DNA of 60,842 bases, counting the filler. It is 6 parts of 6 records of this genome, joined end to end, with 100 filler letters (N's around TTAATTAATTAA, not from the genome) between each part and the next. Parts side by side here need not be neighbours in the genome. Positions count along the whole stretch, not along the records: positions 24,298 to 33,859 come from SRR31156797_249; 5 more parts are not named here. One strand, 5' to 3'. Under the pieces are notes generated by a model that did not search any database, was not told the origin of the DNA, and saw nothing but the letters and a program-made list of their open reading frames with translations. The position numbers were made by a program, and so were the translations under genes. Shown piece by piece: positions 8,444-50,385 of the stretch; positions within the stretch are counted from its first letter, which is position 1, and each line of letters starts with the position of its first letter.

Positions 8444-9265
8444 CTAGGGCCACATTTCAATTTTTTCAGTAAGGGGGAAGTAGTACTTGGTATCAGGACC
8501 GTACCACTTGTTGTAGATCTTTTCGTAGGTACCGTCTTTCCACATATCCTGCAGTGCAAAGTTAACGGCGTCACGAAGTTTGGAATCATCTTCAACCAGA
8601 CCGATGCCGTAAGGCTCGTTGGAGAAGAAGTCACCAACCAGTTCATATTTACCGGGAACCTGTGCAGCGTAGCCGAGCAGGATGGTGGAATCAGTGGACC
8701 ATGCGTCTACGCGACCCATCTGAAGAGCCTGAAAGCACTCAGATTCTTTCTGGTAGGAAATAACTTTGGGAGCAGCATCGCCGAGGCTCTTGAGCAGGTT
8801 CTTAACGTTCAGCTCAGAAGTGGTACCCTGCATAACAGCAACTCTTTTGCCTACGAAATCCTTGAGGGTGGAGAATTTGCCTTTAGGAGCAAGCATCTTC
8901 TGGCCGTCAAAGAAGTAAGTGATGGAAAAATCAATGGATTTATCGCGGGAGCGCTTATGGGTCATGTTGGAAACGGAAGCGTCAATGCGGCCCTGCTGGA
9001 GGAAACCGATACGGGTTTTGTTGTTAACGGGAACCTGATCGATTTTAACGCCCAAGCGTTTTGCGATTTCGTTAGCGATATCAACGTCAAAGCCAACCCA
9101 TTCTTTTTTGGCGTTGTAGAAAGCACCGGGGATGGAGTCAGTCATGATACCGACACGGATAACCTTGTCTTTCATGATTCTGTCATAAGTGGCACCTGCA
9201 AAAGCAGTTGCAGCGAAAGCCATAACCAGAGCGGCTGCGAGAGCCAAAGTCATAAACCTTTTCAT
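8444..9265 (-). CDS. Polar amino-acid ABC substrate-binding protein (family 3)
   Basis: Signal peptide MKRFMTLALAAAL behind an AGGAGG RBS, so the start is placed at 9265; VGFDVDIA, GTTSE and EPYGIG motifs. Confidence 0.92.
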   Translation of the reverse strand: MKRFMTLALAAALVMAFAATAFAGATYDRIMKDKVIRVGIMTDSIPGAFYNAKKEWVGFDVDIANEIAKRLGVKIDQVPVNNKTRIGFLQQGRIDASVSNMTHKRSRDKSIDFSITYFFDGQKMLAPKGKFSTLKDFVGKRVAVMQGTTSELNVKNLLKSLGDAAPKVISYQKESECFQALQMGRVDAWSTDSTILLGYAAQVPGKYELVGDFFSNEPYGIGLVEDDSKLRDAVNFALQDMWKDGTYEKIYNKWYGPDTKYYFPLTEKIEMWP

Positions 9266-9423
9266 TCTTTCCTCCTGCGTGGAAATAGACAAAGAGTATA
9301 CAAAAGAGCGATCCCCGACACCGGAAACCGCGAGCTTCCTGATACTGAGCCTGTAAACATTAATTTACAAGCAATTACCTCACCTCAATATTTACACCCA
9401 CCATATATATGATGGGGAATTCA

Positions 9424-10152
9424 CTAATGCGAAAGGATCTTGCTCAAGAAGAGCTTGGAACGTTCATGCTGCGGGTTGTGGAAGAATTCATCGGGGGTGT
9501 TTTCTTCAATGAGAGCTCCCTCATCCATGAAGATAACCCGGTCTGCAACCTCACGGGCAAAACCCATTTCGTGAGTTACGCAAACCATGGTCATACCTTC
9601 GCGAGCCAGAGCCTTCATTACATCCAGAACCTCATTGATCATTTCAGGGTCAAGAGCGGAAGTAGGCTCATCAAAAAGCATGATATTGGGGCGCATCGCC
9701 AGACCGCGGGCAATTGCCACACGCTGCTGCTGTCCGCCGGAAAGCTGGGAAGGATAATCGCCGGCTTTATCCGGAATATTGACCTTGGAAAGGAGTTCCA
9801 TAGCCAGATCTTCAGCATCCTTACGTTTCATATTCCGAACCATGGTCGGGGCAAGAATGATATTTTCCAAAACCGTCATATGCGGATAGAGGTTAAAAGA
9901 CTGGAAAACGAACCCGATCTCCGCCCGCAGCAGGGGCAGGTTGACCCTCGAACCGTTCACATCCATATCTTCTACAATTATTTCACCTTTTTGAATAGGC
10001 TCAAGCCGATTAATGCAACGGATCATGGTACTCTTACCAGATCCGGAAGGTCCGCAAACAACAACCACTTCGCCTTTTTTAATATGAAGATTGAGATCCT
10101 TCAGGGCGTGGTAGTCACCGTAGTATTTATTGACATTGTTAAATTTTATCAC
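9424..10152 (-). CDS. Polar amino-acid ABC ATP-binding protein (GlnQ-like)
   Basis: [22 protein letters not shown] and [11 protein letters not shown]; probable GTG start at 10152. Confidence 0.93.
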
Positions 10153-17876: not shown

Positions 17877-17976
17877 NNNNNNNNNNNNNNNNNNNNNNNN
17901 NNNNNNNNNNNNNNNNNNNNTTAATTAATTAANNNNNNNNNNNNNNNNNNNNNNNNNNNNNNNNNNNNNNNNNNNN
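17877..17976. other. Artificial contig spacer
   Basis: N44-TTAATTAATTAA-N44, which puts stops in all six frames. Confidence 0.99.
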
Positions 17977-18090: not shown

Positions 18091-19383
18091 ATGTTTAGAA
18101 CAAGAAGCATCTATAAGCAGTTTTCACAAAAGCTTATATTTGCTACTTCTTTCTTTGTGGTAGTCTTATCACTTATTTTTTATGGCTTTACCAAAGCTAC
18201 CATTTATGAAGAGATCTCTGAAGATCTTTTAAAAGATGCAAAACTTATAGTAACTCTCGCTTACAATAAATCTGGTGATCATAATGATCTTAGAGTTTTA
18301 GTAAATGATGATACCACAATTGAAGTGATCTCACTTAAATACCCTGCAAACTATTACTTTAAACAATATGCAATCAAACAAGATCATTTTATGGAGCTTG
18401 TATACCCTTTAGATAAAGACTCTTTACAATATTTAAAACTTAGACGTAATATTAATTCTTCCCATGCAATGCTTAATAAAATATTTAGTAATCTTCTTTT
18501 TTTAGGAACTGGTGGACTAATACTTATCATTGTATATGCTTTTGCTATGTCAAAAACCCTACTATTTCCAATTATTAGAATTACCCAAAAACTTTCAAAT
18601 ATGAATGAAAACTCTTTAAGTCAAATCGATCCATCAAAACTTCCTGTGGAATTTGTACCACTAGCAACTTCGATTAATACCTTAACTACAAGAATAGAAA
18701 ACTATGTGAAGTACCAAAAAGAGCTTTTTATAGGGGCGGCTCATGAGCTTAAAACTCCACTTGCAGTTATGAAGTTAAAATCTCAAGTAACTCTAAATAA
18801 AACTAGAGAGCCTGAAAAATATCAAGAGGTTTTAAAACTTCATCTTGATGAGATAGATGGGATGAATCAGATGATCTCTTCTATTTTAGATATGGGGAGA
18901 CAAGAGGGAGCTCAATTTGAAAAACCAATAGAGCTTGATCTTATACGATACCTACAAACAAAAACTGATAGTTTTAAACTCTTAGCAAAAGAGAAAGATA
19001 TCACTTTAGAGTTTCACAGCAATGTTGAAAGTTTTGTCACTATCATTCAACCGACTCTTTTAACACAGATCATTCAAAACTTTGTGCAAAATGCTATCAA
19101 ATTTACTCCAGAGGGGAAAAAAGTATCTATCTATACAACAGCAGAAGAAAATTATGTGATGGTAGAAGTTGAAGATGAGGGGATAGGATGCCCTGAAGGT
19201 GTGGATCTTTTTGCACCATTTAAACGTGTAGGTGAAGAAAAAGGAGCGGGACTAGGACTATTTTTAGCAAAAAGTGCTGCTGAGACTTTGGGTGGATCTA
19301 TCACTATAAAAAATAGAACTGATGGCGTACAAGGGGCTATTGCAACCCTTGAACTTCATAGTAATCCAACTTGTAGAATCTAA
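18091..19383 (+). CDS. Membrane sensor histidine kinase (CosS-like) downstream of hsrA/cosR
   Basis: Two TMs, HAMP, AAHELKTPL H-box, NAIKF, DEGIG and GAGLGL. Confidence 0.9.
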   Translation: MFRTRSIYKQFSQKLIFATSFFVVVLSLIFYGFTKATIYEEISEDLLKDAKLIVTLAYNKSGDHNDLRVLVNDDTTIEVISLKYPANYYFKQYAIKQDHFMELVYPLDKDSLQYLKLRRNINSSHAMLNKIFSNLLFLGTGGLILIIVYAFAMSKTLLFPIIRITQKLSNMNENSLSQIDPSKLPVEFVPLATSINTLTTRIENYVKYQKELFIGAAHELKTPLAVMKLKSQVTLNKTREPEKYQEVLKLHLDEIDGMNQMISSILDMGRQEGAQFEKPIELDLIRYLQTKTDSFKLLAKEKDITLEFHSNVESFVTIIQPTLLTQIIQNFVQNAIKFTPEGKKVSIYTTAEENYVMVEVEDEGIGCPEGVDLFAPFKRVGEEKGAGLGLFLAKSAAETLGGSITIKNRTDGVQGAIATLELHSNPTCRI

Positions 19384-19817
19384 TTAAATAACTCGTTATG
19401 CTCGATCTTTGTACAATGACTTTGTACCACTTTTAATCCAGCATCTTCCGCTTTTTTAGCAGCCTCATTATGTACAAGACCAAGCTGAGTCCAGATACAT
19501 TTTACATCATCTCTTTGTAAAGCTTCATCAACCACTTCAGCAATTACATCAGGTTTTCTAAAAATATCAACCATATCTATTTGGATATCTTTTGGGATAT
19601 CACCTAAACTTCTATATACCTTTTCCCCAAGAATCTCTTCCTCTTTTGGATACACAGGGATAATTCTAAATCCATGATCTTGTAGATATTTAGCAACTTT
19701 ATTGCTATCCTTCTCAGGCTTTGGAGAACATCCAATAATAGCAACTGTTTTAGTCTCTTCTAAAATAGCTTTAATCTCTTCTTTGTTGCTATTTACTTGT
19801 GGCATCTGACATTCCAT
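19380..19817 (-). CDS. CoA-binding protein (YccU-like)
   Basis: VAIIGCSPKPEKDS, IDMVDIFR and IWTQLG. Confidence 0.9.
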   Translation of the reverse strand: MECQMPQVNSNKEEIKAILEETKTVAIIGCSPKPEKDSNKVAKYLQDHGFRIIPVYPKEEEILGEKVYRSLGDIPKDIQIDMVDIFRKPDVIAEVVDEALQRDDVKCIWTQLGLVHNEAAKKAEDAGLKVVQSHCTKIEHNELFN

Positions 19818-19923
19818 ATAACTTTCCTTAGAATAAAATTTGACTAATTATATAAAAACTAAATAATGTAGAGTTTAAAGTGTTTATATGTTACTCTTCA
19901 CTTCCAATAAAAAAAGGATCTTG

Positions 19924-20445
19924 ATGAGTTTAAGTATTGCTGTACTTTCTGATTCCCATCGTAAACAAAACTTAACCCTTGAAGCAATAGAGCATTTAAA
20001 AAATGAAGGGGCAAAATATCTTATACATGCAGGGGATCTAGAGATTGTTGAGAATCTTCAGCTTCTCCAAGACTCAAACTTACCATATGTAAGTGTCTTT
20101 GGAAATAATGATTACACTCTAACACCCTATTCATCGAATTTTAAAATCTATAAAGAGCCACACTATTTTAAAATAAAAGAGTATAAATTTAAACTTATGC
20201 ATCTTCCTTATTATCTAACAGGAGATACAGATATTGTGATTTTTGGACATACCCATCAGTTTACAGTAGAGTTTAAAAACAATACTCTATTTTTAAATCC
20301 TGGTGAAGTGTGTGCAAGAAATAAGAATTTGAGTGAATGTGCTCTTTTAAAGATAGATGATAATAATATTATTGTAAAATATTTTTTCAAAGCACCAAAT
20401 GAGACCCATTGGGAAAATAAAGAATTTCAATATGAAAGAGTTTAA
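19924..20445 (+). CDS. YfcE-family metallophosphoesterase
   Basis: SDSH, HAGD, GNND, GHTH and NPG motifs; start placed at ATG 19924. Confidence 0.9.
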   Translation: MSLSIAVLSDSHRKQNLTLEAIEHLKNEGAKYLIHAGDLEIVENLQLLQDSNLPYVSVFGNNDYTLTPYSSNFKIYKEPHYFKIKEYKFKLMHLPYYLTGDTDIVIFGHTHQFTVEFKNNTLFLNPGEVCARNKNLSECALLKIDDNNIIVKYFFKAPNETHWENKEFQYERV

Positions 20446-21296
20446 TGGATAAAAAACCGATCTATTTATGTGCAATTTGCAACTGTGAAAGTGGTACTTG
20501 TAACGAAGATTGCAAGTTTTGTACACAAAGTGTAAAATATAAAGCGGATATACAAAGGTACAAAAAAAAAGAGTTTGATACTATTTTAGAAGAAGCGAGG
20601 CAAGCTAGAAAAAATAAAGCTGTTGGGTTTTGTCTAGTTACTGCTGGAAAAGGTTTAACTGATGATCGACTTGAATTTATTTGTGAGGCTGCAAAACTTA
20701 TAAAAAAAGAGGATCTTGGCTTAAAACTTATCGCTTGTAATGGAACAGCAAGTTATGAACAGCTACAAGAGCTACAAAAAGCAGGCGTGGATAACTATAA
20801 TCATAACCTTGAAACTTCCCGTGAGTTTTATCCACAAATTGTGACAACTCATTCTTGGGATGAAAGATATGAAACCTGTGAAAATGTAAATAGAGTTGGA
20901 TTAAAACTTGTGTGTGGAGGGATTTTTGGACTAGGAGAAAGTGAAGATGATAGAATATCAATGCTAAAATCTATCGCATCTTTAGATCCTATGAATGTTC
21001 CTATTAATTTTTTTCATCCTAATGTTGCCTTACCTATTGTAAAAAACTCTATTGACAAAAACAAAGCTTTTGAACTTATTGAACTTACAAAAAAGATGGT
21101 TCCAAATGCTCATAAAATCATGGTTGCTGGTGGGAGAGAGTTGATGTTTCAAAAAGATCAATATAAAGTGTTTGAACATGGTGCAAATTCAATTGTGATA
21201 GGAAACTATCTTACAACACTTGGAGATCATGTAAGTACTGAAATTCAAAATATTGAAGCTCTTGGATACTCTATAGCTTCTCACTGTACAAAATAA
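20445..21296 (+). CDS. bioB: Biotin synthase (short Campylobacterota type)
   Basis: CNEDCKFC radical SAM motif, YNHNLETS, CGGIFGLGE, AGGRE and GNYLTT. Confidence 0.93.
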   Translation: MDKKPIYLCAICNCESGTCNEDCKFCTQSVKYKADIQRYKKKEFDTILEEARQARKNKAVGFCLVTAGKGLTDDRLEFICEAAKLIKKEDLGLKLIACNGTASYEQLQELQKAGVDNYNHNLETSREFYPQIVTTHSWDERYETCENVNRVGLKLVCGGIFGLGESEDDRISMLKSIASLDPMNVPINFFHPNVALPIVKNSIDKNKAFELIELTKKMVPNAHKIMVAGGRELMFQKDQYKVFEHGANSIVIGNYLTTLGDHVSTEIQNIEALGYSIASHCTK

Positions 21297-24197: not shown

Positions 24198-24297
24198 NNN
24201 NNNNNNNNNNNNNNNNNNNNNNNNNNNNNNNNNNNNNNNNNTTAATTAATTAANNNNNNNNNNNNNNNNNNNNNNNNNNNNNNNNNNNNNNNNNNNN
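24198..24297. other. Artificial contig spacer
   Basis: N44-TTAATTAATTAA-N44. Confidence 0.99.
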
Positions 24298-25313
24298 CGT
24301 TCAAACTGGCCGAATTGATTACCCTGGCGAAACAGATCATGCAGGACCGTCAATCCCTGCACCCAGATCCCAAAACAAAAGAAAGCTTGAAATACAGCGG
24401 CGGTGAGGCTGTTCACTGCCCGAGTTCGGCGATGAAAAAAATCTATCGGGCCATAGAAAAAATCGCTCCAACCGATGCCACGGTCCTTATCGACGGCGAA
24501 ACCGGAGTGGGCAAAGATGTCCTGGCCGGCCAGATCCATCGAGCCAGCGCCCGAAACAAGGCGCCTTTGATTGTCCTCGATTGCGGCTTGCTCAACCACA
24601 ACCTGGCGGACAGTGAACTCTACGGGCACCGCAAGGGTGCGTTTTCAGGTGCCGATGAAAAAAAAATCGGGCTTGTCGAAAAAAGTGATCGGGGCACCCT
24701 TTTTTTGGACGAAATCGGAAACATTGATCTCGATCTGCAGAAGAAATTTTTACGTTTTCTCGAAACCGGACGATTTCGTAGGGTTGGCGAAACCGAAGAA
24801 GTACAAGTGGACACCCGAATTATCCTTGCCACCAACGTCAACCTTCACAACGCCTTGGAAAAAGGCCGGTTGCGCGAGGATTTGTTCTATCGGATGAATT
24901 GTGTCTCCCTGAACATCCCTCCCTTGCGAGAACGACCGGAGGACATTCCTCTGCTCGTCGCCCATATGATCACCAAATACAGTGGAAACGAAAGAGAGGT
25001 GTCACAAGAGGCTCTTAATATACTCGCTCGGTATCATTGGCCCGGCAACATCCGTGAACTGAAATCGGCCATTACCAAAGCATTGATTTTTGCCGAAGAG
25101 AATATCATCACCGCCGATGACCTTCCCCGCCATCTGTCGGCGAAACGGAAAGCGACTGTTCGACGGCCTAAAACCCTGGAAGAGATGGAGAAAGATCACA
25201 TCATTGCCGTCTTGGCGGAGACCGGTGGCAATCAATCCAAGGCTGCCGAAATTTTAGGGATCAATCGGAAGACCCTTTACAAAAAAATCCACAAATTTAA
25301 AATTTTCTCCTGA
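24298..25313 (+). CDS. Sigma54-dependent response regulator (5'-truncated)
   Basis: The frame is open from the contig edge with (P)FKLAEL, the end of a receiver domain; GETGVGKD, GAFSGA, WPGNIREL and a Fis HTH follow. Confidence 0.92.
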
Positions 25314-25618
25314 CTGTCAGGGCCTTGGATGAATACCGAAGGTTCGATTGGAGATGAGAGCCTTTTCTGTGGCAGGGTGTCCCTTTTGGCCCCATTCATC
25401 GATATTTATCAGAAAAATATAAAAAACAGTCGGTTATATTATTTTTGGTAAGGTTTTTCGTTTTTTCCTACCTCAAATCTCACTCCCAATTGGTATTGCA
25501 TCTCCCTTGTCCGTCCTGTTCTCCAACCATCTTCGAAACTCATAATTAGGCCTAACGAATTAGATTCGTTGCTAATACAAGAGATTAAAATTCAGTTTGA
25601 TCATGAGATCGCATGTAT

Positions 25619-25634
25619 CGGTACGGTATTTGCT
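25619..25634 (+). promoter_or_regulatory. Putative sigma54 -24/-12 promoter
   Basis: CGGTACGGTATTTGCT has GG-N10-GC spacing, is close to the TGGCACG-N4-TTGCW consensus and lies between a sigma54 activator and the ADH gene. Confidence 0.65.
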
Positions 25635-25808
25635 GAGTCAGTTGAAATGAGGTGGTTTCCTGCTTTGCCGTAATCCGTCCCACCCAACGATGAAGCGGCA
25701 ATGTTTTCGCGCCGATGGCGAACAACACCCAATTGGAAGTGAAGCTTTTCCCTCAAACCAGCAAAGGACCTGAAAAGGAGGTGATACACAATCCTTGACC
25801 TCTTCTAA

Positions 25809-25848
25809 TGAACCTGTAGGCTTTCTCAGTTACATGTCTGCAGGTTCA
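25809..25848 (+). other. Stem-loop in the long 5' leader of the ADH gene
   Basis: TGAACCTGTAGGC/GTCTGCAGGTTCA forms 13 bp including two G-U pairs. Confidence 0.45.
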
Positions 25849-25964
25849 AGATGGCCGGCAGTGGAGCCCGCTCACTCGTCCGAGTTGTTTATCAACCTTT
25901 TTTGGTAAAGAACATTACTGCGAGTCGGGATTGTACAATCATCAAGGAGAAAAGGAGTTGTTTC

Positions 25965-27197
25965 ATGGGACATTTTGCAGACACCCAGCGTAGTATTTCA
26001 AATGAAAGAGTCGAATACCCCCTAAAGATGATGCATGCCTATCCAAAAGCGATCGTCGGTTGGGGGGCCCATACCATGGTGGGGCAGGAAGCCAAGAATT
26101 TGGGCATGAACAATGCGTTCATTGTCACCACGGGCTTAAAAGGGACCGGGATTGTAGAAGAAATCCAGGGGGTACTTAAACATGCCGGTGTCGAATCCAG
26201 TGTTTACGACAATGTAACGGGAAATCCCAAAGACCACGAAGTCATGGATGGTTATAAACAACTTTCCGCTGGCAACTTTGACGGGTTTATCAGTCTCGGT
26301 GGTGGCAGTTCGACGGACTGCTGCAAGGCCATAAAGCTTGTTCATGGTCATGACGGCCAGGACGTCAGAACATTTGAAGGCGCGTTCAAGGCAACCCAAC
26401 CCAACAAACTCCCCCATATAGCGGTTAATACAACATCCGGCACCGCATCGGAAGTCTCCTGTTTCTCCATTATCAATCATACGGATGAGATGTACAAAAT
26501 GGCTTTGTTTGATCCCAACTGCACGCCAAGCCTTGCCTTTAATGATCCGGTCCTCCATCAGTGCATGAACCAGGATATTGCCGCCTATACTGGGATGGAC
26601 GCCCTGACTCATGCGGTCGAAGCAATCGCTTCACGTTTGCTTGTCCAATCCGCCTACGGACAAGGCCTGTGGGCCATCGGCGAGATTTTTACTAATTTAC
26701 GGCAATCATCCGCCAACCGGAACAATGATAAGGCCATCGAACAAATGGTATGGGCCCAAATGGCGGCCGGTTACAGTTTCAACAGTGCCGGACTGGGAAT
26801 TGTTCATTCTATGGCCCATGTGTTGGGTGGACGCTACGATGCGCCCCATGGTTTATGTAATGCGATTGGTCTTGTTGATGTTTGCCGGTACAACCTGGCT
26901 GCCTGCCCGGAACGCTTCAAGATGATGGCTAAAGCGGCCGGTCTCGATACAATAGGCATGTCGGATTTCAAAGCAGGAGAAAAATTCGTTAATGCAGTAG
27001 AAGAACTTCGCTGCGAACTGGGCATTCGGAAGAACTTCAAGGATCTCGGGATGCAAACGGAAGATCTGGACGTCTGCGCAAAAGGTGTGCTAAACGATAT
27101 TTGTACCGAAGGAAACCCTCAGGATGTGAGCTTTGAGGACGCCAAAAAGATGTTCAGCTGTTGTATGGGGGAAGAAGTGGACTTCGGCAGCCGATAG
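25965..27197 (+). CDS. Group III (Fe-type) alcohol dehydrogenase, Mno/Mdo nicotinoprotein-like
   Basis: AAGGAG RBS before ATG 25965; GGGSSTD, TTSGTASE, DALTH, FNSAGLGIVHSMAH and HGLCNAI; N-terminal YPLKMMHAYPKAIVGWGAH and NPKDHEVMD resemble methanol:NDMA oxidoreductases. Confidence 0.85.
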   Translation: MGHFADTQRSISNERVEYPLKMMHAYPKAIVGWGAHTMVGQEAKNLGMNNAFIVTTGLKGTGIVEEIQGVLKHAGVESSVYDNVTGNPKDHEVMDGYKQLSAGNFDGFISLGGGSSTDCCKAIKLVHGHDGQDVRTFEGAFKATQPNKLPHIAVNTTSGTASEVSCFSIINHTDEMYKMALFDPNCTPSLAFNDPVLHQCMNQDIAAYTGMDALTHAVEAIASRLLVQSAYGQGLWAIGEIFTNLRQSSANRNNDKAIEQMVWAQMAAGYSFNSAGLGIVHSMAHVLGGRYDAPHGLCNAIGLVDVCRYNLAACPERFKMMAKAAGLDTIGMSDFKAGEKFVNAVEELRCELGIRKNFKDLGMQTEDLDVCAKGVLNDICTEGNPQDVSFEDAKKMFSCCMGEEVDFGSR

Positions 27198-27255
27198 TAT
27201 TGAATCCGGTATGGATGACGGCTTGCCCCCATTGGATTCGAGCAAATGGCTTCTC

Positions 27256-27281
27256 CCCTCCCCCTCCTCTGAGGGGGAGGG
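27256..27281 (+). terminator. Strong hairpin between ADH and mftA (partial terminator or mRNA stabiliser)
   Basis: Perfect 11-bp CCCTCCCCCTC/GAGGGGGAGGG stem with only a weak U-tract. Confidence 0.5.
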
Positions 27282-27341
27282 AAACTTTGTAAAAACCAAC
27301 CAGGTTATACTACCAATCATCCAAACGAGGAGGAAATGTTC

Positions 27342-27476
27342 GTGGAAGAAAAAATTTTTGAAGAAAGCTCAAAAGAAGTACGGGAAGAGATGGATCGGAC
27401 ACAAGAACAGCCCATGATCATTGAAGAATTCGAAATTGAAGAACTGAGTGTGGATGGTATTTGCGGCGTTTATTAA
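27342..27476 (+). CDS. mftA: Mycofactocin precursor peptide (variant type)
   Basis: Manual translation (M)EEKIFEESSKEVREEMDRTQEQPMIIEEFEIEELSVDGICGVY*. GAGGAGG RBS lies 8 nt before GTG 27342 (alternative ATG at 27336). The C-terminus matches the IDGMCGVY signature and the gene sits directly before mftB-mftC. Confidence 0.93.
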   Translation: MEEKIFEESSKEVREEMDRTQEQPMIIEEFEIEELSVDGICGVY

Positions 27477-27563
27477 CCGATTGGGAATTGATGGGGCCGG
27501 GCATATCGGCGCTTCGCTCCCTGCCTGATTGAGGTAAAACGGTAGTCGATGGAGAAATCAACC

Positions 27564-27845
27564 ATGCGTACCGATTCCATGTACCGGCTCTGCAAAGGTG
27601 TTCAAGTGAGATCAGAAAAGTTCGGTCTTCTCTTTTACAATTACGCAGGTCCGAAAATCTATTTTGTACCCTCCAAAAACCTTGTCGACGATAGCTTTTT
27701 TTCCGGTAGCCAATCGGTATCCGATCTGATTCGTGCGGTCGAAAAGAGGAAAGGATGGTCGAAAAAACATGCCGTGAAGCAGCTGTGGTCCTTTTTTCGG
27801 CAATTGGAAACGAAGGGACTTGTCTATGAACAATCCATATGTTGA
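27564..27845 (+). CDS. mftB: Mycofactocin chaperone (RRE/PqqD-like)
   Basis: YRLCKGVQVRSEKFGLLFYNY...KIYFV matches the MftB pattern (L-x-P/K-x-V-x-x-R-x-E-x-FG-x-L-x-Y); located between precursor and radical SAM gene; start placed at ATG 27564 after GGAG. Confidence 0.88.
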   Translation: MRTDSMYRLCKGVQVRSEKFGLLFYNYAGPKIYFVPSKNLVDDSFFSGSQSVSDLIRAVEKRKGWSKKHAVKQLWSFFRQLETKGLVYEQSIC

Positions 27846-28857
27846 ACAAGGTCTTTCCGCTCCGGTAAACGTTACCTGGGAGATTACCTACGCGTGCAAT
27901 TTGTCGTGCATTCACTGCCTTTCCGATTCGGGAAAGAAAAGACCAGGCGAACTCACTACCGATGAATGCTTTAAGGTAATTGACGACCTGGCCCGCAACA
28001 AGGTCTTTCAGTTCAATATTGGCGGTGGCGAGCCCTTTATGCGGCCCGATTTTCTGGATCTCATGGACGATGCCCATGAAAAAGGCATGGTAACCTGCAT
28101 CAGCACCAACGGAACCCGCATCGATGCCGAAACGGCGAGAAGGTTGAGTCATCCCCTGGTGTATATTCAGGTGAGCCTGGATGGGGCCACCCCCGAGTCC
28201 AACGATGCCATCCGGGGTGCCGGTAGTTTTCATAGGGTAATCCAGGCGCTGGAATACTTAAAACGAGAATCCATCGAAGTCAGCATTAACACCGTTTTGA
28301 CCCGTCGTAGCATTGACGAACTGGACAAGTTGAGCGACTTGGCGGCGGATTTCGGCGCAAAACTTCGTGTTTCCCGCTTCAGGCCATCCGGACGGGGGAA
28401 AGACGCGTGGTCGGAACTCAATGTCACCGAGCAACAGATGCTTGATTTTTCCGCCTGGCTCGGGAATCATTTGAAGGTATCTACGGGCGATTCTTTCTTT
28501 TCGGTTTCCACGGAGGATCGCCGTTCTTTGGGTTTGAATATGTGCGGAGCCTGCAAACTGACCTGCTGCCTGTCTCCCCAAGGTCGTGTCTATCCATGCG
28601 CCTTTTTACAGGAAGAGGAGTTTTACGCGGGACAGCTTCCAAAAGAATCTTTCGCCGATATTTGGCGTAATTCCGAAGTTTTCCGCTCCTTTCGAGGTTT
28701 GGAAATCAAGTCCTGCGAATCCTGCCACCGATTTGACCTCTGCCATGGCGGATGTCCGGCCATTGCCTATCACACCCAACGAAAACTGGGGGTGGCGGAT
28801 CCTGGCTGTCTGGAAAATTGTGTTCGGGTGAAGAAGGCGGCTGTCGTAAATGCCTGA
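27826..28857 (+). CDS. mftC: Mycofactocin radical SAM/SPASM maturase
   Basis: GLSAPVNVTWEITYACNLSCIHCLSDSG, NIGGGEP, QVSLDGA, SRFRPSGRG and SPASM cysteines CGA...C...YPC...CESC...CHGGC...DPGC. Confidence 0.92.
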   Translation: MNNPYVEQGLSAPVNVTWEITYACNLSCIHCLSDSGKKRPGELTTDECFKVIDDLARNKVFQFNIGGGEPFMRPDFLDLMDDAHEKGMVTCISTNGTRIDAETARRLSHPLVYIQVSLDGATPESNDAIRGAGSFHRVIQALEYLKRESIEVSINTVLTRRSIDELDKLSDLAADFGAKLRVSRFRPSGRGKDAWSELNVTEQQMLDFSAWLGNHLKVSTGDSFFSVSTEDRRSLGLNMCGACKLTCCLSPQGRVYPCAFLQEEEFYAGQLPKESFADIWRNSEVFRSFRGLEIKSCESCHRFDLCHGGCPAIAYHTQRKLGVADPGCLENCVRVKKAAVVNA

Positions 28858-28885
28858 AGGATGAATAAAAGGAGGTAATCACACG

Positions 28886-30628
28886 ATGGACAAAATTTTA
28901 CGAATAGCCATGGGGGCCGACGGCGGCCCCTGTGTTTCAGAAGAACCGTTAGGAGAGTACGCGGGAATTGGCGGCCGTGCATTGACTTCGATGATCATTG
29001 GCAAAGAGGTGCCGCCCAGTTGCCATCCACTTGGTGAAGACAACAAATTGGTGATCGCTCCGGGTTTGCTGAGTGGTTCTGCGGCCGCCATGAGCGGCCG
29101 AATTTCGGTCGGCTGCAAAAGCCCCCTGACTGGCGGTATCAAGGAAGCCAATTCCGGTGGCCAAGGTGCACAGGTCATGGCGCGGTTGGGCTATGCTGCC
29201 ATAGTTTTTGAAGGTAAACCTAGTGGCGACACCCTATACAAGGTGTTCATCAACAAGGACGGTGCGGCCGTTGAGCCCGACAACAGCCTGAAAATGCTCG
29301 GAAATTATGATCTTGTAGATAAATTGCGCGCCCAATACGGAGAAAAGGTCGCCTGCATTTCAATCGGCATGGCAGGTGAAATGAAATTGGGAGCGGCATC
29401 GATCGCCTTTACCGACATGGAACAGCGCCCCACCCGCCATGCAGGCCGGGGTGGAGTCGGCGCCGTGATGGGTTCCAAGGGCGTTAAAGCCATCGTACTG
29501 GACGATGCAGAAATGAAAATGCGCCCTCCCAAAGACCCCGAGAAATTTAAAGCCGCCAACAAGACGTTTGTCGCCGGTCTCAAGAAGCATCCGGTTACGG
29601 GAGAAGGACTTCCCGCCTTTGGAACCAACGTGTTGACCAATGTTTTGAGCGAGGCCGGTGGTTACCCCACCCGCAACTTCAGTAGCGGACAGTTCGAAGG
29701 CGCGGGTAATATCAGCGGCGAGACGCAAGCTGCGCTGGAAAACGAGCGCGGTGGTGAAGGATCTGCCACGCATGGCTGTCACCGGGGCTGCATCATCCGT
29801 TGCTCTGGAACTTTTTATGACAAGAACGGTAACTTCCTGACGAAGCAGCCCGAGTACGAGACCGTTTGGGCTCACGGCGGCAACTGCGGCATCGACGATC
29901 TGGATGCCATCGCCCAGATGGATCGGATGGACGATGACTTCGGGCTGGACACCATTGAAATGGGAGCTACCATTGCAGTTGCCATGGAGGCCGGACTGGC
30001 CGAATTCGGCGATGCCCAGGGGGCCATAAAGCTTCTCAAGGAGGTTGGCGAAGGAACACCCCTCGGTCGCGTGCTGGGCAGCGGTGCGGCGATCACCGGC
30101 AAGGTTTTCGGCGTAGAGCGTGTCCCGGTCGTAAAAGGTCAAGCGATGCCGGCCTACGATCCCAGAACCGTCCAGGGCATCGGCGTGACATATGCCACCA
30201 CCACCATGGGCGCAGACCATACCGCCGGATATGCCGTGGCCACCAACATTTTAGGGGTTGGGGGCAGCGTGGACCCACTGAAACCGGAAGGGCAGATCGA
30301 ACTCTCCAGGAACCTTCAGATCGCAACGGCAGCCATCGATTCTACGGGTATGTGCCTATTCATTGCTTTTGCGGTTTTAGATCAGCCGGAAACCTTTCAG
30401 GCACTGATTGACCTGTTGAATTCATTTTACGGACTGGAATTGACCGCTGACGATGTGACGGCTTTGGGCCAAACCATCCTGAAAACGGAAAGAGAATTCA
30501 ACGCCAAGGCCGGGTTTACGTCTGAACACGATCGGCTGCCTGATTACTTTCACAAGGAGAAATTACCTCCCCACAATATAACCTTTATGGTAAAGGATGA
30601 AGAACTGGACAAGGTGTTCAACTGGTAG
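28886..30628 (+). CDS. aor: Tungsten/molybdopterin aldehyde:ferredoxin oxidoreductase
   Basis: KSPLTGGIKEANSGG, RHAGRGGVGAVMGSKGVKAI, CHRGCIIRC, PEYET, GLDTIE and GADHT. Confidence 0.95.
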   Translation: MDKILRIAMGADGGPCVSEEPLGEYAGIGGRALTSMIIGKEVPPSCHPLGEDNKLVIAPGLLSGSAAAMSGRISVGCKSPLTGGIKEANSGGQGAQVMARLGYAAIVFEGKPSGDTLYKVFINKDGAAVEPDNSLKMLGNYDLVDKLRAQYGEKVACISIGMAGEMKLGAASIAFTDMEQRPTRHAGRGGVGAVMGSKGVKAIVLDDAEMKMRPPKDPEKFKAANKTFVAGLKKHPVTGEGLPAFGTNVLTNVLSEAGGYPTRNFSSGQFEGAGNISGETQAALENERGGEGSATHGCHRGCIIRCSGTFYDKNGNFLTKQPEYETVWAHGGNCGIDDLDAIAQMDRMDDDFGLDTIEMGATIAVAMEAGLAEFGDAQGAIKLLKEVGEGTPLGRVLGSGAAITGKVFGVERVPVVKGQAMPAYDPRTVQGIGVTYATTTMGADHTAGYAVATNILGVGGSVDPLKPEGQIELSRNLQIATAAIDSTGMCLFIAFAVLDQPETFQALIDLLNSFYGLELTADDVTALGQTILKTEREFNAKAGFTSEHDRLPDYFHKEKLPPHNITFMVKDEELDKVFNW

Positions 30629-30667
30629 ATGCCCCTGTGGCGTATTCAAAAAGGAGTAAACTTTAAA

Positions 30668-30699
30668 ACGGGGAGCTTTCAAAGGAAACTCCCCGTCTC
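30668..30699 (+). terminator. Imperfect hairpin after aor
   Basis: ACGGGAGCTTTC...GAAACTCCCCGT. Confidence 0.4.
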
Positions 30700-30795
30700 T
30701 GGCTTGGCAGGCATCATGATCCTTGCCGTGATTTTTTCGGATCGTAGGATCCGTAACACAGACTCCTGAAAAACATACATCGGAAAGGAAGCAAC

Positions 30796-31389
30796 ATGCC
30801 CATTAAAATAAAGCTTCTATTGAAAAAAAATAAGGTCTCGCCGATGTATCCCCTGCTTCAGCAAGGATTCCAGGTCACTGCAAAGGTCGGCTGCGACATT
30901 CAGAGCCTTATGTGCGACCAATTAGGAATGATGCCCGATTACTTATCCGATCGAATCAGTACAATTTTTCTTAATGGCAAGCCTGTGGATGACGTTGCAT
31001 CGGCAATTGTGAACGACGGTGCCACGCTGGCGCTGTCAGCTGCCATGCCCGGGTTGGTGGGCGCAACGTTTCGAAAGGCCGGATGCCTGGCATCTTTTAG
31101 GGGGTCGATTACCTACCGGGAAGCATCGGATTATCCTGCAGTCCGCCAGGAAGGTACCGTCACCCTGAAACTGTTTAATTTGCTTATTAATGAAATCGGG
31201 CCGCTTTTCTTGGAGTATGGCATATGGATCCAGGGCCGCCATTTACTCAAGACAATTGAACTCGACAACGGAAAAAACATTAAAAAAGTTGAAAAGAATG
31301 GCCGGGAAATAGATAAAAGCAGGCTATCCGCTCAGGACTGGATTGCTGCCGATGCCCGAACGTTCCTCCAGGTCATTTTTGAGCCTTAA
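30796..31389 (+). CDS. Hypothetical protein with MoaD/ThiS-like (beta-grasp) segment
   Basis: IFLNGKPVDD...VNDGATLALSAAMPG resembles the VNG...L-x-DGD-x-V-x-x-x-PP-x-x-GG end of sulfur carriers; AAGGAAG RBS. Confidence 0.6.
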   Translation: MPIKIKLLLKKNKVSPMYPLLQQGFQVTAKVGCDIQSLMCDQLGMMPDYLSDRISTIFLNGKPVDDVASAIVNDGATLALSAAMPGLVGATFRKAGCLASFRGSITYREASDYPAVRQEGTVTLKLFNLLINEIGPLFLEYGIWIQGRHLLKTIELDNGKNIKKVEKNGREIDKSRLSAQDWIAADARTFLQVIFEP

Positions 31390-31454
31390 ACAACACGATC
31401 AAGTTTCGCAGAGAATGTCTTCTCCCTCTATAGGCCAAAGTATAAAAAACCGCC

Positions 31455-32615
31455 ATGATCAAAGCCGAAACAATTCAATTAAATGATGAATTCTCATTAG
31501 AATCCGGAAGACGTTTAGGTGAGAATCTAATTAAAAAATTAGGTGTCGTGCCAGATGCCTGCTGGCTATTCTGCTCTCCTGATAAAAACCTGGACGCCTT
31601 GGTCAAAGGTGTTCACGAGTCGATCGACATACGAAACCTCATCGGTTGTTCAACCGCCGGAGAAATCTCAACCGATGGTTTTAGTATCGGATCCGCCGTT
31701 TTGGGTGGCATCGTTTCCGATCAGATCGATTTCGAAACAGTTGTCTGCCATGATATCAGCAGAGACAACGAAAGCGCAGGCCGAAAAATTGCATCGGCCT
31801 TTACCGATTCTGTCCGTTATGTGCAACTATTTTCCGATGGTATTACCGGAAATGGCAGCGCTATTTTAAGAGGTATGGCTTCTGTCTTCCCAGAACACAT
31901 ACCCGTATCGGGTGGCACTTCGGGCGATGCCGGAATGTTTTTGAAAACATGGCAATTTTTAGGAGGCCGGGTTTTTACCGATTCGGCAGTGGCCATCGGT
32001 TTCAGCGGTGATTTTAAGCTGGGGACCGGCGTGTGGAGTGGCTGGTCACCCATCGGGTTGCCCAAAAAGGTGACACGCTCGGAAGGCAATGTTCTGTATG
32101 AACTCAACGGCGAACTGGCCCTGAACGTTTTCGAGCGCTTTTTGGGTAAACATGCCAGAAAGCTCCCGGCCGTTGGTGTAGAGTACCCGTTGGGACTGAT
32201 TGGACAGGTTGAAGATGATGACAAAGAGAATCTTCTGCTACGTGCGACCATGTCAGTAGACCATAATCAAGGATCGATCCGCTTCGCCGGCGAAATCCCC
32301 GAAGGTGCCATGGTTTATCTGACTTGCGGGGATCGAACATCTCTGTTGGATGGCACCCAAAAGGCAGTTCGATTGGCCATTGAAGATCTGGGAGCGCCTA
32401 TCCAGCCCTCTGTTGCATTTTTCTATTCCTGTATGGCCCGCAAAATTCTTTTGGGATTGCGTACCAAGGAGGAAATTGAGCAGGTTCGCTCCCAGTTTAG
32501 CTCGGCTGTCCCAATCCTTGGGTTCTACACCTATGGTGAATATAGCCGTATTAAGGGCAACGGCCCAAGCTTGTTACACAACGAAACCGCAACGTTATCC
32601 TTGATCGGGGTATGA
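31455..32615 (+). CDS. FIST (NosP-like) sensory domain protein
   Basis: IGCSTAGEI, SGGTSGD, SGWSPIG, YSCMARK and GFYTYGEY...LHNET. Confidence 0.9.
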   Translation: MIKAETIQLNDEFSLESGRRLGENLIKKLGVVPDACWLFCSPDKNLDALVKGVHESIDIRNLIGCSTAGEISTDGFSIGSAVLGGIVSDQIDFETVVCHDISRDNESAGRKIASAFTDSVRYVQLFSDGITGNGSAILRGMASVFPEHIPVSGGTSGDAGMFLKTWQFLGGRVFTDSAVAIGFSGDFKLGTGVWSGWSPIGLPKKVTRSEGNVLYELNGELALNVFERFLGKHARKLPAVGVEYPLGLIGQVEDDDKENLLLRATMSVDHNQGSIRFAGEIPEGAMVYLTCGDRTSLLDGTQKAVRLAIEDLGAPIQPSVAFFYSCMARKILLGLRTKEEIEQVRSQFSSAVPILGFYTYGEYSRIKGNGPSLLHNETATLSLIGV

Positions 32616-32618
32616 CTG

Positions 32619-33859
32619 GTGTATCGCACTAAAAAATTACTTAAACAAATAAGTGACTTACAGGAACTTCTCGAAGTTTCTGAGCGTAAAGCCGACATCC
32701 TCACCAACCTGCTCAAAGAGGCGGGAGCAGAGTACGACCAGACCCTTCAAAAGACCCAGGTGTCCGAGGCGAACTTCCGGGCCATTTTTGAATATGCGCC
32801 CGAGGCTATCTACATTATTGACATAGATACGCACAGGATTCTTGATTGTAACCCTTTTTTTGAAAAATGGCTTGGATACACATTGAACGATTTGCGTTCC
32901 ATGGATCTGGAAGATGTTCTGGCTCCAGGTGCGGCTCAAGTTGAGGAAAACATCCAAAAAGCCGTCGACAAAGGATCGGTTTATGTCAATGAACGCCGAT
33001 TCAAGAAGAAAGACGGTACGGTTGTCGATGCCGAAGTGACGGGAACGACGATGGTGTATGAGGGACGTAAAAGATTCATGGCCCTTATTCGTGATATCAC
33101 TGAGCGGAAGCAGATTGAAGCTCTGTCACGGTATAAAGAACTCTTCGAAAGCGTTAGTGATGCCGTCTTTATCAATGACGCACAGGGACGCTTTTTAGAG
33201 GTCAACGATGTAGCCTGCAATTGCCTGGGATATTCCAGAAGGCAATTCCTTGGTCTCACCCTGCGGGATATGACCAGTCCGGATCACCACGATGTATTGC
33301 AGCAGATGAGCCGCCGGATTAAGTCAGAGGATCATTCTTATCAATTCGAACTCAGCTTACTGAGTCGCAAAGGTCTGTCAATACCGTTCGATTTTCAGGG
33401 GCGGCTCATTTCATACCGGGCAAGGAACGCTTTTCTAAGTGTGGCCAGGGACATGAGTGTGCGCAAAAAACTACAGGAGACACTGATAAAAACCGAGCGG
33501 TTATCCGCTTTCGGAGAAATGGCCAGCGGCGTGGCACACAACTTCAACAACCTCCTTCAGATGATCATGGCCGGTGCCGAGGCGGCGCAAACCAAGCTAG
33601 AATCGGGAAATATCCTGGATTGTCAGGAGGCCATTCACACGATCATTTCCGCCTCTCTGCGAGGCGCGGATGTGGTTCGACGGATAAAAGATTTCACCCA
33701 TTTATCGACGGACAGCGCGGAAAAAGGCCAAATTTTCAATTTGGAATCGTTGGTGACCGAGGTCATTGAACTGACGCAACCGTTGTGGAAGCCGCCATCC
33801 ACACCCCGCAAATATAAGCTTAATTATGAAAAAAAAGGCGACTGTTTTATCAAAGGTAA
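32619..33859 (+). CDS. PAS-PAS sensor histidine kinase (3'-truncated)
   Basis: Two PAS/PAC repeats and a GEMASGVAHNFNN H-box. Confidence 0.9.
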
Positions 33860-33959
33860 NNNNNNNNNNNNNNNNNNNNNNNNNNNNNNNNNNNNNNNNN
33901 NNNTTAATTAATTAANNNNNNNNNNNNNNNNNNNNNNNNNNNNNNNNNNNNNNNNNNNN
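33860..33959. other. Artificial contig spacer
   Basis: N44-TTAATTAATTAA-N44. Confidence 0.99.
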
Positions 33960-44767: not shown

Positions 44768-44867
44768 NNNNNNNNNNNNNNNNNNNNNNNNNNNNNNNNN
44801 NNNNNNNNNNNTTAATTAATTAANNNNNNNNNNNNNNNNNNNNNNNNNNNNNNNNNNNNNNNNNNNN
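44768..44867. other. Artificial contig spacer
   Basis: N44-TTAATTAATTAA-N44. Confidence 0.99.
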
Positions 44868-50285: not shown

Positions 50286-50385
50286 NNNNNNNNNNNNNNN
50301 NNNNNNNNNNNNNNNNNNNNNNNNNNNNNTTAATTAATTAANNNNNNNNNNNNNNNNNNNNNNNNNNNNNNNNNNNNNNNNNNNN
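50286..50385. other. Artificial contig spacer
   Basis: N44-TTAATTAATTAA-N44. Confidence 0.99.

Follow-up and report, generated by a model that had tools for sequence, protein, structure and literature searches.

The window analysed here is a 60,842-base stretch of DNA. One of its six contigs carries a compact operon in which the gene for a group III iron-dependent alcohol dehydrogenase (Fe-ADH), the mycofactocin genes mftA, mftB and mftC, and the gene for an aldehyde:ferredoxin oxidoreductase (AOR) family enzyme follow one another behind a sigma-54 promoter. We give an even chance to the reading that this operon belongs to an uncultured Desulfobacterales-type anaerobe and would serve, under sigma-54 control, the two-step oxidation of short-chain alcohols, with a mycofactocin variant and ferredoxin as electron carriers. 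The mftABC-AOR linkage recurs in related genomes and the ADH-MftA linkage in metagenomes, and the compact operon is a derived form of a larger gene block.

Parts of this system are of known kinds, namely the variant MftA with a short-chain dehydrogenase/reductase (SDR) partner (NCBIfam), the Fe-ADH neighbours of mycofactocin genes (2011), and the oxidation of alcohols by an ADH plus an AOR. Since Fe-ADH-adjacent mycofactocin genes have been in print since 2011, what is new is the link to AOR and the compact form. The new elements are an ADH-type operon derived from a large block, a Val/Ile co-variation in the precursor and a predicted complex of the AOR with a partner protein. In the full-text literature, as covered by titles and the starts of abstracts and with subscription journals uncovered, no paper describing a mycofactocin-AOR link was found.

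The ADH-mftABC-AOR operon and its promoter

The window consists of six unrelated contigs (G+C from 0.32 to 0.53) joined via N spacers, and positions refer to the joined stretch. The five spacers (17877-17976, 24198-24297, 33860-33959, 44768-44867 and 50286-50385) are each made of paired 44-N runs flanking a 12-base A/T linker. A spacer does not separate true neighbours, and the genes that flank it may stem from different organisms. The operon lies on the third contig (24298-33859; 9,562 bases, G+C 0.50), and only this stretch is thus its true genomic context. All predicted genes of this contig are on the + strand. Their products were scanned against Pfam and NCBIfam with curated cut-offs, and the features of the operon and of its upstream region are as follows.

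24315..25313, + strand: sigma-54-dependent activator (AAA+, Fis-type helix-turn-helix); PF00158 206.8 bits, PF25601, PF02954; receiver domain lost at the contig start (24298)
25367..25394, + strand: conserved block CTGTGGCAGGGTGTCCCTTTTGGCCCCA, candidate activator-binding site, from the spacer alignment
25619..25634, + strand: sigma-54 -24/-12 promoter element CGGTACGGTATTTGCT (GG-N10-GC), from motif match and conservation
25635-25964: leader of about 330 nt from the promoter to the ADH start; aligns with L001
25965..27197, + strand: group III Fe-ADH, 410 aa; PF00465 144.4 bits, PF25137 157.6 bits
27336..27476, + strand: MftA precursor, 46 aa, C-terminus ...EELSVDGICGVY; NF040489 42.9 bits (cut-off 30), TIGR03969 29 bits (cut-off 25)
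27549..27845, + strand: MftB peptide-binding chaperone (RRE); TIGR03967 47.4 bits (cut-off 33)
27820..28857, + strand: MftC radical SAM/SPASM maturase; TIGR03962 385.1 bits (cut-off 265), PF04055, PF13186
28886..30628, + strand: AOR-family enzyme (tungsten/molybdenum pterin), 580 aa; PF02730 188.9 bits, PF01314 265.6 bits
30796..31389, + strand: 197-aa protein with an N-terminal beta-grasp-like and a second domain, predicted AOR partner; no Pfam or NCBIfam family

Gaps between the genes of the operon range from -26 to 167 nt; mftB and mftC overlap by 26 nt, and 28 nt separate mftC from the AOR gene, with no lar genes between them. Terminator-like sites and sigma-70 promoters were as numerous on the contig as in shuffled sequences. 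An initial annotation of this DNA had described co-oriented genes for an ADH, a CGVY-ending precursor, MftB, MftC and an AOR. All of these are present on the + strand and the family scans agree, with MftA, MftB and MftC above their curated cut-offs and the AOR clear in Pfam. The precursor ends in ...VDGICGVY, a tail kept in relatives, and passes both the variant_MftA (NF040489) and the TIGR03969 models. The translation of MftC shows the CxxxCxxC and C-x2-C-x5-C-x3-C motifs. Its runner-up family, the heme b synthase (AhbD) model TIGR04545, reaches 166.5 bits against 385.1 bits for TIGR03962, so that the protein groups with mycofactocin maturases and not with other SPASM enzymes, a point on which the initial annotation hinged.

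The Fe-ADH has both Fe-ADH domains and the motifs of group III iron alcohol dehydrogenases. GGGSSTD, DALTH, VHSMAH and PHG can be read in its translation; we take GGGS to be the nucleotide motif and the Asp and His residues to be the metal ligands. Its solved relatives are 8zrl (278 bits, the best), 8zwd (237 bits) and Zymomonas ADH2, of which 8zrl and 8zwd are NAD-dependent methanol dehydrogenases deposited with ten chains per entry.

The sigma-54 element at 25619-25634 is the sole match to GGYAYN5TTGCW on both strands of the whole 60.8-kb window. About one such match per window is expected by chance, and the argument for a promoter therefore rests on position and conservation. The element sits in a 651-nt spacer behind the sigma-54 activator gene. 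A similar element, defined as GG-N10-GC with at least 9 of 12 consensus positions, was found in the same activator-to-next-gene spacer in all 18 loci examined (17 relatives and the window), while the + strand of the 9.6-kb contig holds two matches in all to this definition. The 16-mer is identical in the window and in the related loci L001, L007 and L013, though the next gene varies (ADH or DUF362). The promoter that had been proposed ahead of the operon is thus borne out by the element itself, its conservation and the adjoining activator gene. About 225 nt further upstream, the block at 25367..25394 consists mostly of invariant columns in five aligned spacers with differing downstream genes, and it may be the binding site of the activator. 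An Rfam scan of the contig at E ≤ 1 gave no match, and the 330-nt leader thus holds no molybdenum cofactor riboswitch.

In relatives, the activator orthologues are 445-aa response regulators encoded behind an ErcA-like Fe-ADH and a histidine kinase. The ErcA-like ADH of this regulatory trio scores 479 bits (cut-off 550). The ErcA family is linked to the control of alcohol oxidation. No RNA library match was listed for positions 25550-31400. In one sediment library, labelled metatranscriptomic but flagged as 'probably DNA', two short contigs of 195 and 151 nt match stretches of the AOR gene without a difference and two more fragments come from relatives, which is not enough to judge expression or co-transcription.

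Related loci and the origin of the compact form

A scan with MftC of one genome per prokaryote species returned 37 loci, nearly all of them from metagenome-assembled genomes (MAGs) labelled Desulfobacterales or Desulfobacteraceae at 72-89% MftC identity (one locus is at 57%). These nearest relatives fit the suggestion, made from the start, of a probably Desulfobacterota-like anaerobe. Genes in the relatives were mapped by tblastn and family scans. In most of them, mftABC is part of a large block that starts with genes for an ErcA-like Fe-ADH, a histidine kinase, a sigma-54 response regulator, two DUF362 proteins, an Mrp-type Fe-S carrier and two small open reading frames (ORFs). The block continues with SDR, mftA, mftB, mftC, (mftF), larE, larB, larC, AOR, the gene for the 197-aa protein, FIST and a hybrid kinase. 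The SDR fits subfamily 3 of the 'mycofactocin-coupled SDR' family (NF040490, 523 bits, cut-off 385), and mftF is inside the block in one subgroup only (TIGR03965, 384 bits, cut-off 280).

The linkage of mftABC with AOR is conserved: among 21 informative loci, mftC has an AOR gene downstream in 15, and the other 16 loci are too short to tell. Where 1.5 kb or more of sequence precedes the mft genes, as in 28 loci, 26 encode an SDR there, one (L001) an Fe-ADH and one (L010) neither. Downstream, larB is present in 22 of the 25 loci with at least 3.5 kb of sequence and missing in L001, L002 and L010. In the window there is no NF040490 SDR next to mftA, and the Fe-ADH occupies that place. Neither mftD, mftE, mftF, mftR or mftG nor larE, larB or larC was found on the contig 24298-33859, and the other five contigs hold no match to MftF, LarE, SDR3, DUF362, LarB or LarC.

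Compared with the variant-type block of the Desulfobacterales, the window has orthologous regulator, promoter, MftB, MftC (72-89% identity), AOR (78-90% identity), 197-aa protein, FIST protein and kinase, and MftD and MftE appear to be absent from both. In contrast to the block, the window has one Fe-ADH replacing the two DUF362 genes, Mrp, the two small ORFs and the SDR; larE, larB, larC and mftF are missing from its contig, and its MftA tail is GVY, not GIY.

The exact gene order of the window, ADH-mftABC-AOR, was found again in the metagenome contig L045, the only locus with an AOR among the best 80 of 173 metagenome ADH loci. Locus L002 reads mftBC-AOR-FIST-kinase with its upstream part cut, and L038, with an ADH 97% identical to that of the window, is cut after mftA. 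In L001 and L040-L043 the order is ErcA-like ADH-kinase-regulator-ADH-mftABC. L010 has the regulator, mftB, mftC, AOR and the 197-aa gene with no adjacent dehydrogenase, and its 730-nt spacer (8971-9703) holds no MftA-like ORF ending in G[VI]Y.

In a maximum-likelihood tree of MftC (44 rows, leaving out rows with less than 90% coverage or less than 50% identity, and with a midpoint root only), the window, L001, L041, L002 and L045 form one clade (100/99) nested among SDR-type rows. The distant loci fall on the far side of the midpoint root, and L010 was compacted separately. One replacement event within the large block is therefore the best reading of the compact form. As regards the ADH-mftABC-AOR linkage of the initial annotation, its conservation stands (L045; AOR in 15/21 loci; ADH-MftA in 12/12 close metagenome loci), but it is a minority, derived form, and the form with SDR, DUF362, Mrp and larEBC is the commoner one.

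The precursor tail changes along with the dehydrogenase. MftA ends in GICGIY in 30 of the 32 related genome loci with a readable peptide (e.g. L013:9560-9718), and among genome loci GICGVY occurs in L001, L036 and the window only. The 12 close ADH-type metagenome loci with sufficient flanking sequence all have GICGVY, and the four readable rows of the ADH/compact clade (window, L001, L041 and L045) have GVY, mftA being cut off in L002. Canonical MftC links the last-but-one residue with the carbon derived from tyrosine, so that the cofactor cores made from GIY and GVY would differ by one methylene. In the GIY relatives, Ile would be cross-linked in place of Val, implying a core one methylene larger than the mycobacterial one. 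As the GVY clade is the Fe-ADH clade among GIY/SDR relatives, the partner enzyme and the cofactor side chain appear to have changed together. This coincidence of the Val change with the change from SDR to Fe-ADH is a single evolutionary event within the Desulfobacterales radiation and is suggestive only; L036, an SDR locus with GVY, is a counter-example to the coupling.

The neighbourhoods of the Fe-ADH were surveyed in a metagenome scan, of which the best 80 of 173 relatives were considered. Fifteen of these loci have ADHs 79-97% identical to that of the window, and in all 12 that have sufficient flanking sequence the MftA gene comes directly after the ADH and ends 157-398 nt behind it. The other 65 loci (58-76% identity) have an ErcA-like ADH, a kinase, a regulator and one or two radical SAM genes before the ADH. 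Ten of them encode MftA (GVY), plus MftB/MftC where the locus reaches, 3.9-7 kb downstream of the ADH, and 12 encode a peptide ending in DG[VI]CGGY about 3 kb downstream. These peptides, found in L052, L055, L058-L060, L064, L065, L070, L081, L087, L098 and L100, have a mycofactocin-like tail with Gly replacing Val and no mftB/mftC beside them in the stretch seen. In L078 (7001-14917), the genes behind an ADH 80% identical to that of the window encode MftA (GVY), a radical SAM protein, two FadH/OYE oxidoreductases and an EtfA-like protein. The radical SAM protein is not MftC (best family 70 bits). The FadH/OYE proteins score 869.8 (over the cut-off of 793) and 749.6 bits (under it) on TIGR03997. 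The EtfA-like protein best matches, in NCBIfam, the acryloyl-CoA reductase electron-transfer subunit and reaches 128.8 bits (cut-off 240) on the mycofactocin-associated EtfA model. The ADH clade of the window thus recurs beside MftA-like peptides in three locus architectures.

Clusters of this sort have been in print since 2011, in line with the remark of the initial annotation that mft-like genes had been noted in some anaerobes. For Geobacter uraniireducens, Geobacter sp. M18 and Desulfotomaculum acetoxidans, Haft 2011 (PMC3023750) places Fe-ADHs beside the radical SAM gene of the mycofactocin system, and the paper describes MftD, MftE and MftR as not universal. A methanol cluster of G. pickeringii with mycofactocin and an Fe-ADH is presented in PMC4358379. 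The window shares with those clusters of strict anaerobes the Fe-ADH next to a mycofactocin radical SAM gene, and its ADH is 68-80% identical to the ADHs of such loci in metagenomes. AOR is lacking from those loci, which differ from the window also in encoding additional radical SAM proteins, FadH/OYE oxidoreductases, ETF or a peptide with a GGY tail.

Two further genes close the contig of the window.

31455..32615, + strand: FIST-domain sensor protein; PF08495 155.8 bits, PF10442 100.6 bits; NosP 72 bits, under its cut-off of 450
32619..33859, + strand: PAS-PAS histidine kinase, 3' part lost at the contig end; PAS families, TIGR00229

The FIST gene is kept downstream in relatives. The kinase orthologues are 664-aa hybrid kinases with a receiver domain, that of L013 having HATPase_c and Response_reg domains. 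After the hybrid kinase, L013 encodes (19198-20685) a 495-aa protein with two CCG domains (GlpC/HdrD-like; GlpC model 213 bits, cut-off 278), which might give the block an electron outlet on the membrane side or through disulfides. In L013 (4334-8622 and 11132-13279) and L018 (10900-13418), two DUF362 genes, Mrp and larE/larB/larC share a block with mftABC. DUF362 belongs to the same Pfam clan as the N-terminal domain of LarA (PMC11770544). With the DUF362, Mrp and lar genes in one block with mftABC, genes for two rare cofactors share one operon.

The AOR and its 197-residue neighbour

The AOR of the window has the AFOR_N and AFOR_C domains, the cluster cysteines and the active-site His of its family. 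Its solved relatives are 9mqx (305 bits), the Pyrococcus furiosus enzyme 1aor (271 bits) and the A. aromaticum enzyme 8c0z (269 bits). Across 15 AOR orthologues from these loci, the mean column identity is 87%, and C298, C302, C306, C490 and H445 are invariant. Residues 298-306 (window 29777-29803) read CHRGCIIRC, a C-x3-C-x3-C spacing that is invariant in the 15 orthologues. The usual spacing in AORs is C-x2-C-x3-C. In alignments, this stretch is out of register with the Cys motif of 1aor and 9mqx.

The 197-aa protein encoded behind the AOR had been called MoaD-like, a description that holds in part. The protein matches no Pfam or NCBIfam model, including the MoaD/ThiS sequence models, and a Foldseek search of its AlphaFold (AF2) model (predicted local distance difference test (pLDDT) 79.8) against the PDB gave nothing at E ≤ 0.001. 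VIA-align against representatives placed ThiS/MoaD chains at the top for residues 24-87, with a weak Z of 3.9, a root-mean-square deviation of 1.8-2.2 and 57-59 aligned residues. The beta-grasp likeness is weak. The beta-grasp part continues into ...AAMPGLVGATFR and then about 110 further residues, and none of nine aligned sequences ends in Gly-Gly. With no terminal Gly-Gly and with a second domain, the protein cannot act as a thiocarboxylate sulfur carrier. It is conserved, and in the Atlas it belongs to clusters that hold only hypothetical proteins (784, 138 and 89 of them), most of these from Thermodesulfobacteriota. Of the 13 relatives that can be read past AOR, 8 have its gene there.

Models of the AOR and the 197-aa protein together scored 0.86, 0.85 and 0.87, against 0.02 for the best of three controls. 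Of 78 solved complexes, 51 attain the score mark used, as do 2 of 108 mismatched pairs and, in the method's own benchmark, 7 of 44 blind neighbour pairs. The runs share at least 90% of contacts, with a pLDDT of 86 for the partner. In the predicted complex, a conserved loop of the partner (residues 81-105) lies against AOR residues 424-449 and 467-498, beside H445 and the cluster cysteines C306 and C490. AOR residues 235-287 are also part of the predicted interface. The modelling supports, without proving, binding of the 197-aa protein to the AOR.

Iyer, Burroughs and Aravind 2006 (PMC1779556) and Makarova and Koonin 2010 (PMC2948915) describe MoaD genes that strictly adjoin AOR genes in many lineages, including deltaproteobacteria. 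The window shares with these a gene for a beta-grasp-like protein directly behind AOR. In contrast to them, its protein has 197 residues, a second domain and no Gly-Gly, and it is predicted to dock on the finished enzyme. It looks like a longer derivative of the AOR-adjacent MoaD theme.

Proposed electron flow through the operon

In the reading that we favour, an alcohol-responsive regulatory trio, assigned by synteny with L001 and L040-L043, would turn on the operon. The activator, which in relatives is paired with an ErcA-like ADH and a kinase that are here cut off, would drive the -24/-12 promoter at 25619. MftB and MftC would make a cofactor from the GVY tail of MftA. The Fe-ADH would oxidize a short-chain primary alcohol to the aldehyde, and its bound nicotinamide would be re-oxidized by this small cofactor, hydride passing to the MftA-derived molecule. 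The AOR, probably complexed with the 197-aa beta-grasp protein, would take over the aldehyde, oxidize it to the acid and reduce ferredoxin. Two-step alcohol oxidation by an NAD-dependent ADH and a tungsten AOR is classical in Desulfovibrio and Pelobacter. The likeness to those bacteria would lie in the route from alcohol to acid via a free aldehyde and in ferredoxin as low-potential acceptor; here, in contrast, the ADH and AOR genes flank peptide-cofactor genes and share one sigma-54 promoter. With the canonical MftA-F system (plus MftG and MftR) of Mycobacterium and its Mno/Mdo, the window has in common the GVY-tailed MftA, matches to the MftB and MftC models and a group III Fe-ADH neighbour. 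It differs in having no mftD, mftE, mftR or mftG, in its sigma-54 control, in its anaerobic lineage, in the AOR within the operon and in an ADH that scores under the TIGR04266 cut-off (298 against 625).

Several findings weigh against this pathway. One concerns the maturation of the cofactor. MftD, MftE and MftF were sought in the genomes of ten relatives, five with the large block and five further (three with compact loci). MftD (TIGR03966) and MftE (TIGR03964) were over the cut-off in none of them (0/5 and 0/5 for each), the best MftD score being 174 bits against a cut-off of 470.85. MftF (TIGR03965), by contrast, was over the cut-off in all ten (5/5 and 5/5) and in most lies in the mft locus or within about 10 kb of it; MftC is single-copy in these genomes. 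As none of MftD, MftE and MftF is in the window, the statement about the lineage rests on the relatives' genomes, which are MAGs and so incomplete, but all ten agree on MftD and MftE. Creatininase-family genes scoring 155-164 bits (MftE cut-off 172) occur in four genomes, on contigs other than that of the mft locus; the one examined is an ordinary member of its family, located beside genes for a pyridoxal phosphate enzyme, a regulator and CorA. We do not regard it as a dedicated MftE, even if it might yet fill that role. MftD and MftE therefore appear to be absent from the lineage. In mycobacteria, MftD and MftE release the core and create its redox-active carbonyl (keto-amide), so that neither the release of the tail nor the formation of the redox group has a known enzyme here. 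The lineage would thus make, and probably glycosylate, an MftA-derived product without the release and oxidation enzymes. The description of the locus as mycofactocin-type holds in that MftA, MftB and MftC pass curated models; it is, however, of the variant type (NF040489) and not canonical.

Other findings of this kind concern the two oxidoreductases. On TIGR04266, the model of NDMA-dependent methanol dehydrogenase, the Fe-ADH scores 297.9 bits over model positions 5-356 of 420, and its scores on the ErcA and lactaldehyde reductase models are about equal to this. Haft 2011 (PMC3023750) ties the NAD-site motif TSNPKDYEV to mycofactocin. The window's Fe-ADH has TGNPKDHEV and the regulatory ErcA-like ADH has VTNPRDYQV; the motif was rejected as a mark of mycofactocin dependence, as the ErcA-like ADH nearly matches it too. 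Since it does not discriminate, the case that the Fe-ADH would depend on the MftA-derived cofactor rests on recurrent gene context and not on a diagnostic residue. AOR is not downstream of mftC in 6 of the 21 informative loci (L001, L016, L024, L031, L032 and L036; in L031 a piece of an AOR gene lies upstream, on the opposite strand). L001, L041 and the like are ADH-mftABC loci without AOR, and L001, which reads past mftC, has the kinase directly next. In 5 of the 13 relatives, AOR is not followed by the gene for the 197-aa protein. The products of SDRs are usually ketones, which are not AOR substrates. As the common form of the block pairs with an SDR, the hand-over of an aldehyde does not wholly account for the constant presence of AOR.

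These points bear differently on the alternatives. We hold it unlikely that the MftABC product is no free redox cofactor and stays a modified peptide or becomes another molecule (serving, for instance, in signalling, in maturation or as a group bound to a protein), the ADH using ordinary exchangeable NAD(P). The lack of MftD and MftE in the ten genomes would fit this, as would near-cut-off MftE-like genes that lie off the mft contig and, in the case examined, in an unrelated context. The same is true of an ADH below the cut-off of the sole curated mycofactocin-dependent Fe-ADH model and of L010, with mftB, mftC and AOR, no detectable MftA and no adjacent dehydrogenase. However, MftF, present in or near the locus of all ten relatives, canonically acts on the released cofactor. 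The dehydrogenase beside mftA in the common form belongs to a 'mycofactocin-coupled' SDR family (523 against 385), the ADH family stands beside MftA-like peptides in three architectures, and the GIY-to-GVY change coincides with the change of dehydrogenase. A flux in the reductive direction, with the AOR reducing an acid with reduced ferredoxin and the ADH making an alcohol as electron sink at the expense of an MFT-like reductant, seems to us improbable. The sequence fixes no direction, AOR is reversible, and an acid-to-alcohol route through AOR and ADH operates in acetogens and Pyrococcus. Yet the relatives are sulfate-reducer-type Desulfobacterales, judging by their record titles, with a respiratory electron sink, and their upstream trio includes an ErcA-like ADH (479, cut-off 550) of a family tied to the control of alcohol oxidation. 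The known physiology of mycofactocin is likewise one of alcohol oxidation.

It is also a long shot that the AOR and its beta-grasp partner do not take the aldehyde and are the cofactor's own redox partner towards ferredoxin, a stand-in for MftG in anaerobes. This would account for an AOR that stays constant while the dehydrogenase switches between SDR and Fe-ADH, and for its presence beside SDRs with their usually ketonic products. The contig encodes no MftG-like or other re-oxidizing enzyme, and in the complex model the partner loop touches the AOR around H445, C306 and C490. Against it, activity on such a substrate is not known from any enzyme of the AOR family, and this AOR, 78-90% identical across loci, is typical by sequence. 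AOR is absent, moreover, from the same six informative loci and from all more distant ADH-MFT loci among the best 80 of 173.

To our knowledge, work on mycofactocin has so far been confined to aerobic actinobacteria, in which the redox-active group is formed by MftD and respiration receives the electrons by way of MftG. We see little chance that strict anaerobes use an MFT variant free of MftD and MftE as a private shuttle, which the AOR and its partner would couple to ferredoxin as MftG does to respiration in mycobacteria. If they did, the change from GIY to GVY together with that from SDR to Fe-ADH would show each dehydrogenase recognizing its own side-chain version. The operon of the window is the smallest self-contained anaerobic version seen so far, with one dehydrogenase, three maturation genes, one AOR and one promoter. 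Five or six genes would thus suffice to ask what MftB and MftC produce without MftD and MftE, and the compact operon would also let the dependence of the anaerobe Fe-ADH on that product and the link from cofactor to ferredoxin be tested. Loci in which an Fe-ADH has taken the place of the SDR, and Val that of Ile in the precursor, lend themselves to a comparison of cofactor specificity, and the predicted AOR-partner complex points to an undescribed family of AOR subunits that is common in Thermodesulfobacteriota.

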